Positions 33,710-41,405 of a stretch of 64,000 nucleotides of DNA are shown here, piece by piece. This stretch comes from Alphaproteobacteria bacterium. Lineage in GTDB: Bacteria; Pseudomonadota; Alphaproteobacteria; Bin95. The position numbers were made by a program, and so were the translations under genes. The stretch spans positions 4,096,001 through 4,160,000 of the forward strand of contig CBDBGH010000003.1 in assembly GCA_965205265.1 (NCBI GenBank), written 5' to 3'. Within the stretch, counting starts at the first letter, position 1. The number at the start of each line of letters is the position of its first letter. Below the pieces are notes generated by a model, which saw nothing but the letters and a program-made list of their open reading frames with translations, was not told where the DNA came from and did no database searches.

Positions 33710-34863
33710 TGCAGGTCTGGCATTTCAGCGAGATGGCTTACCACCCGGGCTGGGAGTTCCTGAACGAAGGCCTGCGCAACGTGATCCCGAGCCGGGTCTA
33801 TGACCCGGAGATCGGCGCCGACCTCTACCACCGCTATCTCGACGAATGGGCGCTCTGCGACCGGCTCGGCCTCAACATCATGGTCAACGAGCACCATGCC
33901 ACGGCGACCTGCACCACCTCGGTCTGCACCATCCCGATGGCGATCCTGGCGCGCGAGACCGAGAAGGCCCGCCTGCTCTGCCTCGGCATGCCGATCGGCA
34001 ACCGCATGGACGCAGTACGCGTCGCCGAGGAATACGCCATGCTCGACGTCATCAGCCGCGGCCGGGTGGAGATGGGCTTCGTCAAGGGCGCGCCTTTCGA
34101 GATCAACCCCGCCAACTCCAATCCGGCTGAACTCGAGGAGCGCTTCTGGGAGGCGCATGACCTCATCGTCAAGGCGATGACGACCCATGACGGACCGTTC
34201 AACTGGGAGGGCCGGCATTACCACTACCGCGAGGTGAATGTCTGGCCGCGCCCCTGGCAGCAGCCGCATCCGCCGGTCTGGATGACGGTGGCGAGCCCCG
34301 GCTCCGCCCGGCGCGTCGCCCGCAAGGGCTATGTCATCGCGGCGCTGAACACGGGCTACATGCACACACCCGTGGTCTATGGCGCCTACCGGGAAAGCGC
34401 GGCGGAGGCGGGCTTCGAGGCCGGGCCCGACCGCTTCGCCTATCTCTGCATCGTCGGCGTCGGCGAAACCGAGGCCGAGGGCAAGCGCCGCGCCCACCAG
34501 ATCCTCGACTACAGCCGGACCACGCCGCGCGTGCAGCCCCAGTTCTTCTATCCGCCGGGCTATTCGCCGGCGGCGCGGATGGCGGGCCTGATCCGCAGCG
34601 GGTCCGAGCTTCGCATCCAGCGCCGCGACGGCTCCGACTTCCCGATGCAGGACGGCACGGTGGAGGACTTCATGGCCGCCGGCATCGCCTTCGCCGGCAC
34701 GCCGGCGCAGGTGGTGGAGCAGGTGGAGGAATTCGCCGCGGCCGTCGGCGGCTTCGAGCACCTGCTGATGATGGGGCAGGGCGGCTTCCTCGGCCACGAG
34801 GACACGGTCGCCAACCTCACGCTCTTCTCCGAGGAGGCGCTCCCGGCGATCGCCCGGCTCTGA
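33709..34863 (+). CDS. Luciferase-like (LLM) flavin-dependent monooxygenase
   Basis: NEHH, AEEYAMLDVISRGR, WPRPWQQPHPPVW; TGATG coupling to the hydrolase. Confidence 0.9.
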   Translation: MQVWHFSEMAYHPGWEFLNEGLRNVIPSRVYDPEIGADLYHRYLDEWALCDRLGLNIMVNEHHATATCTTSVCTIPMAILARETEKARLLCLGMPIGNRMDAVRVAEEYAMLDVISRGRVEMGFVKGAPFEINPANSNPAELEERFWEAHDLIVKAMTTHDGPFNWEGRHYHYREVNVWPRPWQQPHPPVWMTVASPGSARRVARKGYVIAALNTGYMHTPVVYGAYRESAAEAGFEAGPDRFAYLCIVGVGETEAEGKRRAHQILDYSRTTPRVQPQFFYPPGYSPAARMAGLIRSGSELRIQRRDGSDFPMQDGTVEDFMAAGIAFAGTPAQVVEQVEEFAAAVGGFEHLLMMGQGGFLGHEDTVANLTLFSEEALPAIARL

Positions 34864-34937: not shown

Positions 34938-35897
34938 ATGTCGGTCATTCTGGGCAGCGGAGAGCACCGCTACCGGGTCGTGGAGGACTGGGCGAAGCTG
35001 CCCGACGGCTGGGAGTTCCGCGATGTCGCCGCGGTCGCGGTGGACGGCAATGACCGGGTCTATGTCTTCAATCGGGGCGAGCACCCGATGGTCGTCTTCG
35101 ACCGGGACGGCAATTTCCTGCGCTCCTGGGGCGAGGGGGAGTATCCGCGCGCCCATGGCATCCATATCGGCCCCGACGAGACGCTCTACCTCACCGATGA
35201 CGGCAGCAACACCGTCCGGCGCTGCACGCCGGAGGGCAAGGTGCTGATGGAGCTCGGCGTGCCCGGAACGCCCGCGCCCTTCATGAGCAACGAGCCCTTC
35301 CACCGCTGCACCCACACCGCGATCTCGCCGGACGGGCACCTGTTCGTTTCCGACGGCTACGGCAATGCCTGCGTCCACAAATACACGCCTGACGGCAGGC
35401 TGGTGAAAAGCTGGGGCGAGAGCGGCACCGATCCCGGGCAGTTCAATATCGTCCACAACATCACCGCCGACGATGACGGCTGGATCTATGTCGCGGACCG
35501 CGAGAACCACCGTGTCCAGGTCTTCGACACGGAGGGGCGCTACGAGGCGCAGTGGAACAATCTCCACCGGCCCTGCGGCCTCTACATGCCGCGCGGCTCC
35601 TGCCCGCACTGCTTCATCGGCGAGCTCGGGCCGGGCATGGCCGTCAACCGCCACCACCCCAATCTTGGCCCCCGGCTTTCCATCGTCACGAACGAGGGCG
35701 AGCTGGTCGCGCGGCTCGGCGGCGAGGACGGGCCGGGGCAGGAGCCCGGCAGGTTCCTGGCCCCGCACGGCCTCGCCGTGGACAGCCGGGGCGACATCTA
35801 TGTGGGCGAGGTCGCCTACACCAACTGGCCGGCCAGCTTCGGCGACGAGCCCCGGCCCCGCTGGCTGCGCACGCTGCAGAAGCTCGAAAAGCTGTGA
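34938..35897 (+). CDS. NHL-repeat beta-propeller (peptidyl-alpha-hydroxyglycine lyase-like)
   Basis: Repeated VAVD..DRVYV, FVSDGYGN, YVADRENHRVQVFD, PHGLAVDSRGDIYV. Confidence 0.85.
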   Translation: MSVILGSGEHRYRVVEDWAKLPDGWEFRDVAAVAVDGNDRVYVFNRGEHPMVVFDRDGNFLRSWGEGEYPRAHGIHIGPDETLYLTDDGSNTVRRCTPEGKVLMELGVPGTPAPFMSNEPFHRCTHTAISPDGHLFVSDGYGNACVHKYTPDGRLVKSWGESGTDPGQFNIVHNITADDDGWIYVADRENHRVQVFDTEGRYEAQWNNLHRPCGLYMPRGSCPHCFIGELGPGMAVNRHHPNLGPRLSIVTNEGELVARLGGEDGPGQEPGRFLAPHGLAVDSRGDIYVGEVAYTNWPASFGDEPRPRWLRTLQKLEKL

Positions 35898-36199: not shown

Positions 36200-37117
36200 A
36201 TGGTCCCCGAACCGAAGGTCATCGAGACCCGCATCCACGCCGTCCTGCCGGACGAGCTGCGGATTACGGACCGCGAGAGCGATTTCGCCCGCGAGATCTT
36301 CCGCGGCCATGCGGTCGGCTCCTTCCTGGAGGGCCCGGCCTTCGACGGCGCCGGCAACCTCTACATGGTGGATATCGCCTTCGGGCGCATTTTCAGGCTG
36401 GCGCCGGACGGCGAGTGGTCGGTAACGGCCGAGTATGACGGCCATCCCAACGGCATGAAGCTCCACCGGGACGGGCGGCTGTTCGTCGCCGACCGGCAGA
36501 ACGGCGTGATGGTGGTCGATCCGGTAAGCGGCAAGGTCGAGACCTTTCTCGGGCCGGACCGGCTGCCCGGCTACAAGGGGCTGAACGACCTGTTCTTCGC
36601 CTCGAACGGCGACCTCTACTTCACCGACCAGGGCCGCACCGGCCTCCATGACCCGACGGGCCGCGTGTTCCGGCTTTCCGCGTCCGGCAAGCTCGACTGC
36701 CTGGTTTCCAATGCGCCGAGCCCGAACGGCCTCGTCATGAATCCGGCCGAGACGGAGCTCTATGTGGCCGTGACCCGCGACAACGCCGTCTGGCGCGTGC
36801 CCTTCCGCGAGGACGGCTCCGTGCATCGCGTGGGGCTCTTCTGCCGGCTCGTCGGCGGCATGGGGCCGGACGGCATGGCCGTGGACCGGGCCGGCAATCT
36901 CGCCGTCGCCCATGCCGGCGGCGGGCAGGTCTGGCTCTGGTCGGCGAACGGCCTGCCGACCCACCGGGCGGTCGCCTGCGACGGCGGCCTGCTCACCACC
37001 AATGTCGCCTATGGCGGCCCGGACGGGCGCACGCTGTTCATCACCAACTCGCTCAGCGAGAATGTGCTGACGGCCGAAATGCCGGAGCCGGGCGAGCCGA
37101 TGTTCGGCCTTGCCTGA
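36200..37117 (+). CDS. SMP-30/gluconolactonase family protein
   Basis: LEGPAFD, PNG, LNDL, GPDGMAVD, TTNVAYGG. Confidence 0.9.
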   Translation: MVPEPKVIETRIHAVLPDELRITDRESDFAREIFRGHAVGSFLEGPAFDGAGNLYMVDIAFGRIFRLAPDGEWSVTAEYDGHPNGMKLHRDGRLFVADRQNGVMVVDPVSGKVETFLGPDRLPGYKGLNDLFFASNGDLYFTDQGRTGLHDPTGRVFRLSASGKLDCLVSNAPSPNGLVMNPAETELYVAVTRDNAVWRVPFREDGSVHRVGLFCRLVGGMGPDGMAVDRAGNLAVAHAGGGQVWLWSANGLPTHRAVACDGGLLTTNVAYGGPDGRTLFITNSLSENVLTAEMPEPGEPMFGLA

Positions 37118-37145: not shown

Positions 37146-37595
37146 ATGGCGGAAAAGGCGGTGCCGGTCGGCATCAACCATGTCGCGCTGGAAGTGGGCG
37201 ACATCCAGGAGGCGCTGGCGTTTTACGGCGGCTTCCTCGAGCTCGAAATCGCGCGGCAGAGCGACAAGGCCGCCTTCGTCTATTTCGGCGACCAGTTCAT
37301 CAATTTCTCGCTGGGACGCCGGCAGGGGCCGGACGACAGCCGCCATTTCGGCATCGCCGTGGACGACAAGGAGCTCGCCATCCGCCGGCTGGAGGAGATG
37401 GGCGTGGCGTTCCTCGAAGGGCCGTTCACCGACTTCCTCGACCCCTGGGGCAACCGGGTGGAGCTCACCACCTACACGAAAATCCAGTTCACCAAGGCCG
37501 GCCACGTGCTGCGCGGCATGGGCCTCGGCCATCTCGAAAAGGCGCCGGAGGCGCTGGAGGAGCTTGCCGCCAAGGGCATGGCCCCCGGCGAATGA
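37146..37595 (+). CDS. VOC/glyoxalase family protein
   Basis: GINHVALEV, HFGIAV, DPWGNRVE. Confidence 0.85.
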   Translation: MAEKAVPVGINHVALEVGDIQEALAFYGGFLELEIARQSDKAAFVYFGDQFINFSLGRRQGPDDSRHFGIAVDDKELAIRRLEEMGVAFLEGPFTDFLDPWGNRVELTTYTKIQFTKAGHVLRGMGLGHLEKAPEALEELAAKGMAPGE

Positions 37596-37623
37596 CCGCC
37601 ACCCGGCGACAGGGAGGACAGCA

Positions 37624-38556
37624 ATGAGCGGGCGCTTCGGCTTCGCGCCGGCGGAGGACCGGCCGATCCCCTATCTGGACCGTATCCGCCGCTATTACGA
37701 GACGCTGGGCTACGGCAAGCCCTATGAATGGGCGCATTATGTCGAGACGCCCTTCGTTCCGCTGGAGAAGCCGCTGGCCGAGGCGCGCATCGGGCTGATT
37801 ACGACCGCCGCGCCCTACCGGCCGGACAAGGGCGACCAGGGACCGGGCGCGCCCTACAATGCGGCGGCCAAGTTCTACAGCGTCTATTCGGGCGACAGCG
37901 CGACGGACCCGGACCTTCGCATCTCGCATATCGCCATCGACCGCGACCACACCACGGCCGAGGATATCGGGACCTGGTTCCCGCTCCGGCAACTCCGGGC
38001 GGCGGCGAAAGAGGGCCGGATCGGGGAGGTGGCGCCGCGCTTCCACGGCGCGCCCACGAACCGCAGCCACGCCGCGACCATCGAGGTGGATGCGCCGGAG
38101 CTGCTGGCGCGCTGCCGGGAGGACGGGGCGGATGCGGTCCTTCTCGCCGCCAATTGACCGGTGTGCCACCAGACCGTGAGTCTGGTCGCCCGCACACTGG
38201 AGGCCGCCGGCATCCCGACTGTCGCGATGGGCTGCGCCAAGGACATCGTGGAGCATGCGGGCGCGCCGCGTTTCCTGTTCAGCGATTTCCCGCTCGGCAA
38301 TCCGGCCGGGCGTCCGCACGACCCGGACTCGCAGCGCGAGACGCTGGCGCTGGCGCTCCGCCTGCTGGAAGGCGCGCCGGGCCCGAACACGACCCTGCAG
38401 AGCCCGCTGCGCTGGTCCGCCGATCCGTCCTGGAAGCGCGACTACTCCAATATCGACCTGGTGCCGCCGGAGGAGATCGCGCGCCGCCGCGCGGAGTTCG
38501 ACCGCATCAAGGACGTGGCGAAGTCCCGGCGCGAAGAGGATGCGGCCGCCGGCTGA
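37624..38556 (+). CDS. Putative selenoprotein, GrdB/PrdB (reductase selenoprotein B)-like, 310 aa with Sec178
   Basis: One continuous frame from ATG 37624 (RBS AGGGAGG) with a single in-frame TGA at 38155-38157 in DAVLLAAN-U-PVCHQTVSLVARTLEAAGIPTV; also PLAEARIGLITTA and FPLGNPAG; SECIS-like hairpin follows. Confidence 0.85.
38161..38197 (+). promoter_or_regulatory. Putative bacterial SECIS element
   Basis: Inner stem ACCAGAC/GTCTGGT (38168-74/38180-86), loop CGTGA starting 17 nt after the UGA, outer stem GTGTGC/GCACAC. Confidence 0.75.
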
Positions 38557-38576: not shown

Positions 38577-39401
38577 ATGAACGGTCCGCAGGCGAGGAGC
38601 GCCCGAATGGAACATGCCGACGGCAGGATGCTGGCCGGGAAGGAAGCCGGGATCGGCTGGATGACCTTCAACAATCCGGCCCGGCGCAACGCCATGACGA
38701 TGGAGATGTGGCAGGGCGCCGACGCCATCCTCGCGGATTTCGAGGCCGACCCGGAGGTGCGGGTCATCGTGCTGAAGGGCGCGGGCGACAAGGCCTTCGT
38801 TTCCGGAGCGGACATCTCGCAATTCGAGAAGAACCGCGCCGACGCCGCGGCCGCGGCGCGCTACGCGGAAGCGACCGATGCCGGCCGCCGGCGGCTCGCG
38901 GGCGCGGAAAAGCCCGTCATCGCCATGATCCGCGGCTTCTGCATGGGCGGCGGCCTCGGCATCGCCATGACCTGCGACCTGCGCTTCGCCGCCGAGGGCT
39001 CCGAGTTCGGCATTCCCGCCGCCCGGCTCGGCATCGCCTATAATTTCGAGAATGTGCAGAGCCTCGTCGGGCTGGTGGGGCCGGCGCGGGCCAAAGACAT
39101 CCTGTTCTCCGGCCGGAGGCTGCCGGCGGAGGAGGCCTATGCGATCGGCCTGATCGACCGTGTGCTGCCGGCAGCGGAACTGGAAGGCCATGTGCGCGAC
39201 TACGCGGCCCGGCTCGCGGTCAATGCGCCGCTCTCGATCCGCGCTTCCAAGCTTACCGTCCGTGAGGTGATGGCCGACCGGCAGGAGCGCGAGGCCGGAC
39301 TCATCGAGGCGCTGGCGAAAGCCTGCTTCGACAGCGCCGACTACCGCGAGGGCCGCACCGCCTTCATGGAAAAGCGCCGCCCGGTCTTCACCGGCAGTTG
39401 A
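38577..39401 (+). CDS. Enoyl-CoA hydratase/crotonase family
   Basis: AFVSGADI, GFCMGGG, FGIPAARLG, DYREGRTAFMEKRRP; start 38577 or 38607. Confidence 0.9.
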   Translation: MNGPQARSARMEHADGRMLAGKEAGIGWMTFNNPARRNAMTMEMWQGADAILADFEADPEVRVIVLKGAGDKAFVSGADISQFEKNRADAAAAARYAEATDAGRRRLAGAEKPVIAMIRGFCMGGGLGIAMTCDLRFAAEGSEFGIPAARLGIAYNFENVQSLVGLVGPARAKDILFSGRRLPAEEAYAIGLIDRVLPAAELEGHVRDYAARLAVNAPLSIRASKLTVREVMADRQEREAGLIEALAKACFDSADYREGRTAFMEKRRPVFTGS

Positions 39402-39476: not shown

Positions 39477-41405
39477 ATGGCGAATACCAGCAACAACACC
39501 CCGGCGACCGAGCGCGGCGCCCACCCGCTGAACGCGCTGACACCGGCCGAGATCGAGGCGGCGGGCGGAATCGTCCGGGCCTGGGAGGGGTGGACCGAAA
39601 CGACGAAATTCGAGGCGATCCGCCTGCATTACCCGGACAAGGCCGCATGCCGGGCCGAAATCGCGGCCGGCAGGGCCGGGGCCGGCCGCAGGGCCTATGT
39701 CAGCATTTACGACACGGCCGCGGTCAGCGTGAGCGAGCTCATCGTCGATCTCGCGGGCGGCAGGGTGGAATCGGCGACGGAGGTGCCGGGCGCCCGCCCG
39801 GCGATCAATGTCGATGAGTTCCTGGTCTGCGCCGAGACGGTGCCGCAGCATCCCGATTTCATCGCGGCGATGGAACGGCGCGGCGTGACCGATCTTTCCA
39901 ATATCCAGGTCGATCCCTTCTCGGCCGGCAATTTCGGCTTCGAGGACGAAAAAGACCGGCGGCTGGTGCACTGCCTGGTCTATCTGCGCTCCGACCCCTC
40001 GGACAACGGTTACGCCCACCCGGTCGAAGGCCTGAACGTGCTGTTCGACCTGAACCGCGTCGAGGTCGTGCGGGTCATCGACCAGAAGGTCCACAAGGTC
40101 CCGGCGGCCTCCTCGAACTACCAGGCCGCGCGGCCCGAGATCGCCGGAATCCTGCGCAGCGACCTCAGGCCCATCGACATTTCCCAGCCCGACGGGCCCA
40201 GTTTCACCGTGGAGGACCGGGTCGTCACCTGGGCCAATTGGCGCTTCCATGTCGAGTTCCACCCGCGCGAGGGGCTTGTGCTCAACGACATCCAGGTGCG
40301 CGGCGGCGAGAAGGCGCCCTGGCGGCCGCTCATCTGGCGCGCCTCGATTGCGGAAATGGTCGTGCCCTATGGCGACCCCTCCTTCAACAACTACCGCAAG
40401 AACGCGTTCGATGTGGGCGAATACGGCCTCGGCCAGGTCGCCAACCCGCTGAAGCTCGGCTGCGACTGCCGCGGCCATATCCACTATTTCGACGGTGTGT
40501 ACACGGTGACCTCGGGCGAGCCGGTAGTGGTCGAGAACGCCATCTGCCTCCATGAGGAAGATGACGGGATGCTCTGGAAGCATACCGACTACATGACCGA
40601 AGAGATGGAGCACCGCCGGGCGCGCCGGCTGCTGGTCTCCATGATCGCGACCGTGGGCAATTACGAATACGGTTTCTACTGGGTCTTCCACATGGACGGG
40701 ACGCTGGAGCTGGACGTGAAGGCGACCGGCATCATGAACACGCAGGGCCTGAATGCGGTTTCGGGAACGGACTACGGCACCGAGGTCATGCCCGGCGTCA
40801 CCGCGCCCAACCACCAGCACCTGTTCTGCGCCCGCCTCGACATGGCGGTGGACGGCGACGCCAACCGGCTGGTCGAGATGAATGTGGTGCAGCCGCCGAT
40901 GGGCGAGGAGAACCCGAACGGCAATGCCTTCCGGGCGGAGCGAACGGTGCTGAAGACGGAAACCGGCCGGACGCGCAATGCCGACACCGAACGGTTCTGG
41001 AAGGTGGAGAGCGCAAGAGCGGCCAACGCGCTCGGCCGGCCGACGGCCTACCGCCTGCATTCCAGCGGCATGCTCCGGCCCTGGTTCCATGCCAGGACGA
41101 TGATGTCGAAGCGCGCGGCCTTCATCTTCAACCATATGTGGTGCACGCCCTACGACGCAGGCGAGCGTTTCCCGGCCGGGCGGTTCGTCAACCAGAGCGA
41201 CGGCTCGGAGACCATCGCCGCCTGGGTCGAGCAGGGCCGGTCCATCGAGGATACGGATATCGTGCTGTGGCACACCTTCGGCCTGCTGCACCTGCCGCGC
41301 CTCGAGGACTGGCCGGTGCAGCCGGTCGCCCGCACCGGCTTCCGGCTCGAGGCCGACGGCTTCTTCGACCGCAATCCGACGCTCGACGTGCCGCCGGGAG
41401 CGTGA
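39477..41405 (+). CDS. Copper/topaquinone primary amine oxidase
   Basis: HPL, FDVGEYG, LGCDC, TVGNYEY (TPQ site), HQHLF and HLPRLEDWP copper ligands. Confidence 0.93.
   Translation: MANTSNNTPATERGAHPLNALTPAEIEAAGGIVRAWEGWTETTKFEAIRLHYPDKAACRAEIAAGRAGAGRRAYVSIYDTAAVSVSELIVDLAGGRVESATEVPGARPAINVDEFLVCAETVPQHPDFIAAMERRGVTDLSNIQVDPFSAGNFGFEDEKDRRLVHCLVYLRSDPSDNGYAHPVEGLNVLFDLNRVEVVRVIDQKVHKVPAASSNYQAARPEIAGILRSDLRPIDISQPDGPSFTVEDRVVTWANWRFHVEFHPREGLVLNDIQVRGGEKAPWRPLIWRASIAEMVVPYGDPSFNNYRKNAFDVGEYGLGQVANPLKLGCDCRGHIHYFDGVYTVTSGEPVVVENAICLHEEDDGMLWKHTDYMTEEMEHRRARRLLVSMIATVGNYEYGFYWVFHMDGTLELDVKATGIMNTQGLNAVSGTDYGTEVMPGVTAPNHQHLFCARLDMAVDGDANRLVEMNVVQPPMGEENPNGNAFRAERTVLKTETGRTRNADTERFWKVESARAANALGRPTAYRLHSSGMLRPWFHARTMMSKRAAFIFNHMWCTPYDAGERFPAGRFVNQSDGSETIAAWVEQGRSIEDTDIVLWHTFGLLHLPRLEDWPVQPVARTGFRLEADGFFDRNPTLDVPPGA

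Follow-up and report, generated by a model that had tools for sequence, protein, structure and literature searches.

The gene located at positions 37624 to 38556 of the window (the whole stretch of 64,000 nucleotides that was analysed) is a new member of a catalogued, functionally unexplained family of marine selenoproteins; that it is a selenoprotein is no novelty. Its in-frame UGA codon is almost certainly recoded, SelB binding the hairpin that follows and inserting selenocysteine at residue 178, to give a homologue of PrdB with a U-x-x-C centre. What is new here are the clues to function provided by operon, co-occurrence and fusion evidence.

The features of the gene were the following:

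37624..38556, forward strand: coding sequence of the PrdB-like selenoprotein, 310 aa, with U178-P-V-C181-H-Q (TIGR04483 match, E 3e-25; alignment of homologues)
37613..37617, forward strand: Shine-Dalgarno-like GGAGG, 6 nt upstream of the ATG (sequence)
38155..38157, forward strand: in-frame UGA assigned to selenocysteine, residue 178 (Cys in homologues)
38164..38166, forward strand: Cys181, putative resolving cysteine of the UxxC motif (kept in 120 of 120 homologues)
38158..38200, forward strand: bacterial SECIS hairpin with the loop CGUGA at 38175-38179 (fold, and conservation in TGA rows)

The start ATG lies at 37624, the codons AAT-TGA-CCG-GTG-TGC (N-U-P-V-C) occupy 38152-38166 and the stop TGA is at 38554-38556. 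The earlier note had stated that the ORF track splits the gene at the TGA of 38155-38157 and that the frame stays open beyond it, and this is the case: translation table 11 gives ORFs at 37180/37624-38157 and 38161-38556, and reading the TGA as U yields a single product of 310 aa, ending at 38556, with N-U-P-V-C-H-Q around U178. The role of Cys181 as resolving cysteine is putative and is taken over from PrdB and GrdB. No sigma-70 promoter was found for the gene and terminator matches were at chance level. RNA-library contigs of relatives span the UGA (X15, 37324-38193; X16, 38001-38285); these contigs may be DNA and were not counted as proof of expression. A public contig across the stretch showed 0 substitutions and may itself be the source of the DNA.

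The UGA was assigned to selenocysteine because the genome carries the Sec genes, the position pairs with cysteine in homologues, the TGA is found family-wide, the apical stem of the hairpin is kept in nearly all TGA copies and in very few Cys copies, and selA co-occurs with the TGA. The search for selA, selB, selC and selD found all of them: selA next to selB, selD as part of a fusion and a tRNA-Sec whose anticodon is UCA, all located on the same contig as the window in a genome that is 99% complete, with 7% contamination, in 3 contigs. Both Cys at position 178 and Cys181 were invariant in the 120 best homologous proteins among the matches listed. Because Cys forms are over-represented among full-length predicted proteins, DNA loci were read as well: at the Sec site of 80 genome loci (a count that excludes 5 spurious motif matches elsewhere in the loci) TGA was found in 13, TGC or TGT in 67 and TGG in none. 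The pairing of TGA with Cys at residue 178, proposed as a check in the earlier note, was observed. Among genomes sampled evenly from the class, selA was found in 19 of the 20 with a TGA copy and in 0 of the 10 with Cys copies only. The exceptions to the selA/TGA rule were G114 and G035 (77% complete), with TGA and no selA found, G283, with a selA fragment only, and G285, with selA and a Cys copy.

An intact full-length orthologue with TGA was present in 22 of 24 genomes of the same taxonomic family, one of the other two having an orthologue split by an insertion and one being a fragmented genome without orthologue; the suspicion that the TGA is a sequencing error does not survive this result. 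The split orthologue, in a congener (L159, G008:C1:794000-806000), is interrupted exactly at the UGA by an element of approximately 7.1 kb, and a 14-bp stretch comprising the Sec codon and the first part of the SECIS is duplicated; the UGA that closes the 5' half has no SECIS after it, and precise excision would restore the gene. The element carries what we take to be two integrase-like ORFs and an ssb-like gene. In another genome (G004, contigs C298 and C85) two near-identical copies, 90-91% identical to the query, were found; the bin has 9% contamination and the double copy is probably due to strain mixing.

The two paralogues present in this genome also carry TGA within U-x-x-C. The second paralogue (L011, G000:C3:4420630-4421768; G000 is the genome of the window) codes for 294 aa with UPVCHQ and has the same SECIS core; downstream of it lie a glutaredoxin gene and an enoyl-CoA hydratase gene, the link with glutaredoxin being seen in 5 rows from four families. 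A longer type of approximately 400 aa, with U-P-N-C and a helical C-terminal extension (L012, G000:C3:1193225-1194436; L143-L150), lies within approximately 1-9 kb of selA in G247, G193, G052, G146, G185 and G027, and several copies have GST-like genes upstream.

The earlier note had described the hairpin as having a 7-bp inner stem, a CGUGA loop with G at its second position 17 nt after the UGA, and a 6-bp outer stem. The inner stem (38168-38174 paired with 38180-38186), the loop, its G and the spacing 3' of the UGA were all recovered; the outer stem was undercounted, since the minimum free energy fold gives 9 bp (38158-38166 paired with 38192-38200). The 43-nt fold had an energy of -23.5 kcal/mol and a z-score of -3.0, none of 200 shuffled sequences being equally stable; longer fold windows were weaker (z -1.5 and -1.4). 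The accessible part of the source for the bSECIS model gives a loop of 3-9 nt, an upper stem of 4-16 bp, a G in loop positions 1-2, a spacing of 16-37 nt and an MFE of -7.5 or lower (PMC13188914). The hairpin falls within these published constraints, as the earlier note had proposed; only the optional N1-N2 pattern of the same text is not followed, C and A at the two ends of the loop being unpaired.

The 5-bp apical stem was intact in 39 of 40 TGA rows versus 2 of 68 Cys rows (29 of 30 versus 2 of 65 when distinct 48-mers were counted), and the rows encoding the peptide TVSL used one codon string in 39 of 40 Sec rows and in 0 of 27 Cys rows, both counts being inflated by kinship among the rows. 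On the family tree, built with FastTree, the Sec/Cys codon switches state 8 times. The bSECIS element directly 3' of the UGA is under selection in the UGA copies only. That the gene is instead a pseudogene, two genes, a sequencing error or a case of TGA read as Trp has a negligible probability: a GTG at 38161 could restart translation, but the TGA is fixed across the family, pairs with Cys only, and co-varies with both selA and the hairpin.

The protein matched the PrdB model TIGR04483 with 89.1 bits, against a cut-off of 300, and the GrdB/F/H models (TIGR01917, TIGR01918) with 41-48 bits (E 1e-11 to 1e-12). Alignment with clostridial PrdB gave 32% identity over 224 aa with the Sec residues in register, confirming the earlier description of a GrdB/PrdB-like UxxC protein. 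The two differ in the motif (UPVC here, UGTC in PrdB; both share the U-x-x-C-H register), in the conserved N-terminal (approximately 1-45) and C-terminal (approximately 255-305) segments, which are not found in clostridial PrdB, in the lack of PrdA and in the aerobic host; moreover, the orphan family consists mostly of Cys forms outside the Sec-using lineages. With GrdB, GrdF, GrdH and FarB (fluoroacetate reduction) the protein shares a homologous catalytic domain, but it matches only the C-terminal half of the 430-aa GrdB/F/H models and its genome has neither GrdA nor GrdE/G/I. The PrdB-like gene occurred in 31 of the 251 Alphaproteobacteria sampled.

No Pfam family was matched at E 0.001 and no PDB sequence at E 1. 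The AlphaFold model built from 138 sequences had a pLDDT of 92.6, versus 38 for the single-sequence fold. A Foldseek search with this model gave no match at E<=0.001, which is not evidence of a new fold; VIA-align indicated a generic Rossmann-like alpha/beta fold, the top 50 rows being of LacI/SDR type (best Z 9.4, rmsd 4.7, 143 residues aligned). Many charged residues distant from the UxxC motif were invariant (R20, R22, K83, H102, D106, H109, N146 and R147).

The family has been seen in environmental DNA. The accessible text of the Sargasso Sea survey lists 42 'Proline reductase PrdB' UxxC genes (2005, PMC1088965), that of the GOS survey 235 Sec and 110 Cys 'Proline reductase' sequences (2008, PMC2398784; pfam07355), and a further paper, in the part available, reports 'proline reductase' in non-clostridial genomes (PMC1794560). 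The 'Proline reductase' reads of GOS supplement 3 contain the motifs APYNAAAKFY, PTNRS and NUPVCHQTVSL of the present protein, with UPVCHQ 86 times and NUPVCH 14 times, and the Sargasso supplement has 14 occurrences of PVCHQ. Matching of these motifs by eye places the environmental family in the same subfamily, with the same Sec site. The gene was hidden, as the earlier note put it, in the sense that ORF calls split it, but the surveys of 2005 and 2008 already contain its subfamily, with Sec at this site, as one of the most abundant among marine selenoproteins. In their accessible parts both papers take proline reduction for granted and are silent on the missing PrdA and on CoA partners. A literature search covering few subscription journals returned nothing on a CoA link or on PrdB without PrdA.

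The partners of PrdB and GrdB were searched for in the whole genome. The family PF09338, comprising the pyruvoyl proproteins PrdA and GrdE/GrdG/GrdI, gave no match in this genome or in the 251 genomes of the class sample, and the search was positive for 2 of 2 clostridial control records. A tblastn search with PrdA found nothing in the genome at E<1. GrdA was not found in the genome, its positive control being matched; the GrdC model NF040746 also gave no match in the genome, though no true positive control was matched either. In a Peptoclostridium megaplasmid (L151:5663-6703) a PF09338 match was observed just upstream of prdB, at a place where the PLSDB table shows no gene.

These results extend to the whole genome the earlier statement that no Grd/Prd partners are nearby, and they indicate that the PrdB-like protein very probably works without a pyruvoyl subunit (PrdA/GrdE) and without GrdA. 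They bear on the reading, found in database labels, that the protein is a true subunit of D-proline or of glycine/sarcosine/betaine reductase, which is very improbable and largely refuted: PrdB is matched along its entire length, the Sec residues being aligned, and the RefSeq and JGI names agree with this reading, but the score is 89 bits against 300, neither PrdA, GrdE nor GrdA is present here and PF09338 is missing from the class sample. Furthermore, PrdA is required for activity of the clostridial enzyme, according to the accessible text of PMC11229817.

Two genes for haem-copper oxidase subunit I are encoded in the genome, whose host is aerobic, and the O2-dependent neighbours named in the earlier note were recovered as a copper amine oxidase gene (39477-41405) and an LLM monooxygenase gene (33712-34863). 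The neighbours were taken from a codon-score gene caller that is poor on low-GC loci, where names are incomplete (5 loci without anchor). Next to the gene the following were found:

34938..35897, forward strand: NHL propeller (PF01436)
36200..37117, forward strand: SMP-30/gluconolactonase-like propeller, genus-level neighbour (PF08450)
37146..37595, forward strand: VOC/glyoxalase-family gene directly upstream, genus-level neighbour (PF00903; cluster c12)
38607..39401, forward strand: enoyl-CoA hydratase PRK06127 directly downstream, CoA-related neighbour in the genus (next gene in 14 rows of the genus clade)
39477..41405, forward strand: copper amine oxidase, neighbour in part of the genus (PF01179; cluster c16)

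All five are conserved as neighbours within the genus only, the 11 loci of cluster c16 belonging to the clade of this genus. The copper amine oxidase and the LLM monooxygenase were rejected as partners, not being neighbours outside the genus. An NHL gene 65% identical to the present one also abuts a homologue in another lineage (the frameshift chimera P0277).

By analogy with PrdB, the protein may be a selenol/thiol-dependent reductase acting on a CoA-activated carboxylic acid, the CoA thioester taking the place of the pyruvoyl group; we favour this reading, while holding it with less than even confidence. The CoA association of the family was shown as a genomic pattern. Across 116 locus rows, the slot directly after the homologue was taken by a class III CoA-transferase in 33, an enoyl-CoA hydratase in 14, a glutaredoxin in 5, a PilZ gene in 20 and another gene in 42, with 2 rows too short. 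The transferase of the 33 rows (one of which, L139, is a distant family member) starts within approximately 450 bp downstream; the background in this genome is 42 transferases among 5052 genes. Against the CoA model, in 64 of the 116 rows the homologue is followed by neither a CoA-related nor a glutaredoxin gene (PilZ in 20, another gene in 42, row too short in 2), and CoA enzymes are plentiful in the genome, with 42 transferases, 34 hydratases and at least 27 ligases.

Two transferase subfamilies, approximately 30% alike, occupy the downstream slot, often in overlapping or nearly abutting frames, and both retain Asp at the catalytic position, which we take to be the catalytic residue of class III CoA-transferases. 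In the class sample a transferase was the next gene in 6 of 7 close Sec-form orthologues, the seventh being the present gene with its enoyl-CoA hydratase, and in 0 of 5 close Cys-form orthologues, which speaks against the CoA model; one of these five had a ligase-like gene on the opposite strand. Cys forms beside a transferase are common in Nitrobacteraceae and Acetobacteraceae, including culturable Bradyrhizobium.

Subfamily A transferases occurred in 6 of 11 genomes with a close orthologue versus 0 of 240 without in the class sample, and in 9 of 14 versus 0 of 387 in the phylum sample; this co-occurrence overlaps synteny, the two genes lying side by side in 4 of the 6 positives of the class sample and in 8 of the 9 of the phylum sample. 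A single genus accounts for 7 of those 9, the two samples share G000 and G091, and scoring was limited to 7 or 4 candidates per genome. In G000 the subfamily A orthologue (68%) is unlinked and lies near selD (C3:4506813-4508027). The subfamily is retained in 14 of 16 genomes of the same genus, unlinked in the 11 loci inspected. At this place (L179, G000:C3:4505701-4512077) the subfamily A gene overlaps another gene, presumably MetE-like, and is divergent from a second transferase located 5' of the fused selD; the gene order recurs in congeners.

A conserved Cys lies beside the catalytic Asp in subfamily A transferases. It was rejected as a distinctive mark, the pair being present also in 3 of the 42 transferases of this genome and absent from subfamily B. 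The conserved Cys is one ground for another explanation, that the protein maintains CoA sulfur by reducing CoA disulfides, mixed disulfides or persulfides, or repairs oxidised thiols of the partner CoA enzymes, with no attack on carbon. This would account equally for the coupling to several unrelated CoA enzymes, and Cys forms would suffice for it. We consider it improbable, given the distribution of the Cys-Asp pair just described and the fact that PrdB/GrdB chemistry is an attack on carbon, as stated in the accessible parts of PMC11229817 and PMC10298544.

Fusions were searched among 34 homologues of 546-2000 aa, which were sorted into 22 clean acyl-CoA ligase fusions, 4 kinase-like fusions, 4 frameshift chimeras and 4 without assignment. 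The ligase fusions form two clades of 11, less than 45% alike and all Cys forms, which were separate on the tree (3 rows of each included). In G359 the clade-1 ligase is unfused and located just upstream of the homologue. Three apparent transferase fusions and one NHL fusion (P0294, P0301, P0302 and P0277) were rejected, being read as frameshift chimeras; the three with transferase show adjacency only. The term stand-alone, used for the enzyme in the earlier note, is accurate as regards Grd/Prd subunits and inaccurate for the family, where genomes show links to class III CoA-transferases and fusions with acyl-CoA ligases.

The four kinase-like fusions (P0272-P0275), in which a Cys form is joined to an APH/methylthioribose-kinase-like domain, are against the CoA model. 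They favour instead cleavage of a carbon-heteroatom bond in a substrate activated in another way (either inherently, betaine and haloacids being examples, or through phosphorylation) or with an unrecognised, non-homologous partner subunit, as do the many loci without CoA genes. GrdI/FarE offer a precedent: in the accessible text of PMC10838667 pyruvoyl-free homologues of GrdB are proposed for betaine and fluoroacetate. In the neighbour surveys no non-CoA partner recurred across distant lineages, and activation of this kind seems unlikely. In the present genome a homologue (46%) of the kinase-like domain was observed at C3:2010029-2010973.

Reduction of a CoA-activated acid, the reading that we favour, would proceed as follows. 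A class III CoA-transferase, or an acyl-CoA ligase in other lineages, would make the acyl-CoA thioester, which would stand in for the pyruvoyl group of PrdA by activating C-alpha and stabilising a carbanion. The selenolate of Sec178 would attack C-alpha and expel a leaving group (an amine or ammonium, sulfonium, thiolate or halide) or, in a variant, would add to an enoyl-CoA. Cys181 would then attack the selenium, and the reduced acyl-CoA would leave as a carbanion stabilised by the thioester; reduction of the Se-S bond would fall to a glutaredoxin or thioredoxin. The N-terminal and C-terminal extensions probably build the substrate pocket in the stead of PrdA. In this genome the partner transferase would act in trans, the proposed coupling being one of pathway steps rather than of bound proteins, and the Cys versions would serve this function where a genome lacks the Sec machinery.

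In the Prd system, as far as the accessible text of PMC11229817 describes it, D-proline is bound to the pyruvoyl group of PrdA and its C-alpha is attacked by the Sec of PrdB; the U151C variant of clostridial PrdB is inactive. Most members of the present family being Cys forms, this counts against the CoA reading: their chemistry may be easier than that of PrdB, or different. According to a review (PMC10298544, part available), the reaction leaves a selenenylsulfide at its end, and a carbon that is not activated is a chemically difficult target for such an attack. The pyruvoyl-free GrdB homologues proposed in PMC10838667 are a precedent for the CoA reading as well, and the glutaredoxin gene after the second paralogue also counts in its favour.

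The CoA neighbours could also reflect genome content, the protein being a general thiol/selenol oxidoreductase (for disulfide, peroxide or sulfoxide), like the Trx/Prx-like selenoproteins that make up most of marine selenoproteomes. The invariant UxxC/CxxC, the aerobic host and the variety of neighbours, glutaredoxin included, are in agreement with this; the other varied neighbours are presumably rhodanese-like, GST-like and TauD-like genes. Zhang and Gladyshev place the family among redox motifs (PMC1088965, accessible part). On the other side, the fold of the model appears Rossmann-like, with no Trx-fold match among the top 50 rows (best Z 9.4, generic), the many invariant charged residues far from UxxC suggest a specific pocket, and two independent ligase fusions are left unexplained. 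We regard a general oxidoreductase as rather unlikely.

Taken further, and only tentatively, the CoA reading would make the family a new class of enzyme, in which one chain carrying Sec or Cys and no pyruvoyl group performs the reduction, a CoA thioester serving as electron sink. Such an enzyme would cleave a C-N, C-S or C-halogen bond as part of an aerobic catabolic route not yet recognised, to which a class III CoA-transferase or acyl-CoA ligase would be dedicated. The label 'proline reductase', in use since 2005, would then be wrong for a selenoprotein family that ranks among the most abundant in oxygenated seawater.

The analysis corrects the split annotation of a catalogued selenoprotein family and indicates that in genomes without PrdA its members cannot be proline reductases. 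Fusions, operons and co-occurrence together point to candidate partners, and the question is testable without selenium, because Cys versions lie beside the transferase in culturable Bradyrhizobium. If the proposed function is true, it would represent a new use of PrdB chemistry in air, and a common misannotation that implies Stickland fermentation in aerobes would be corrected.
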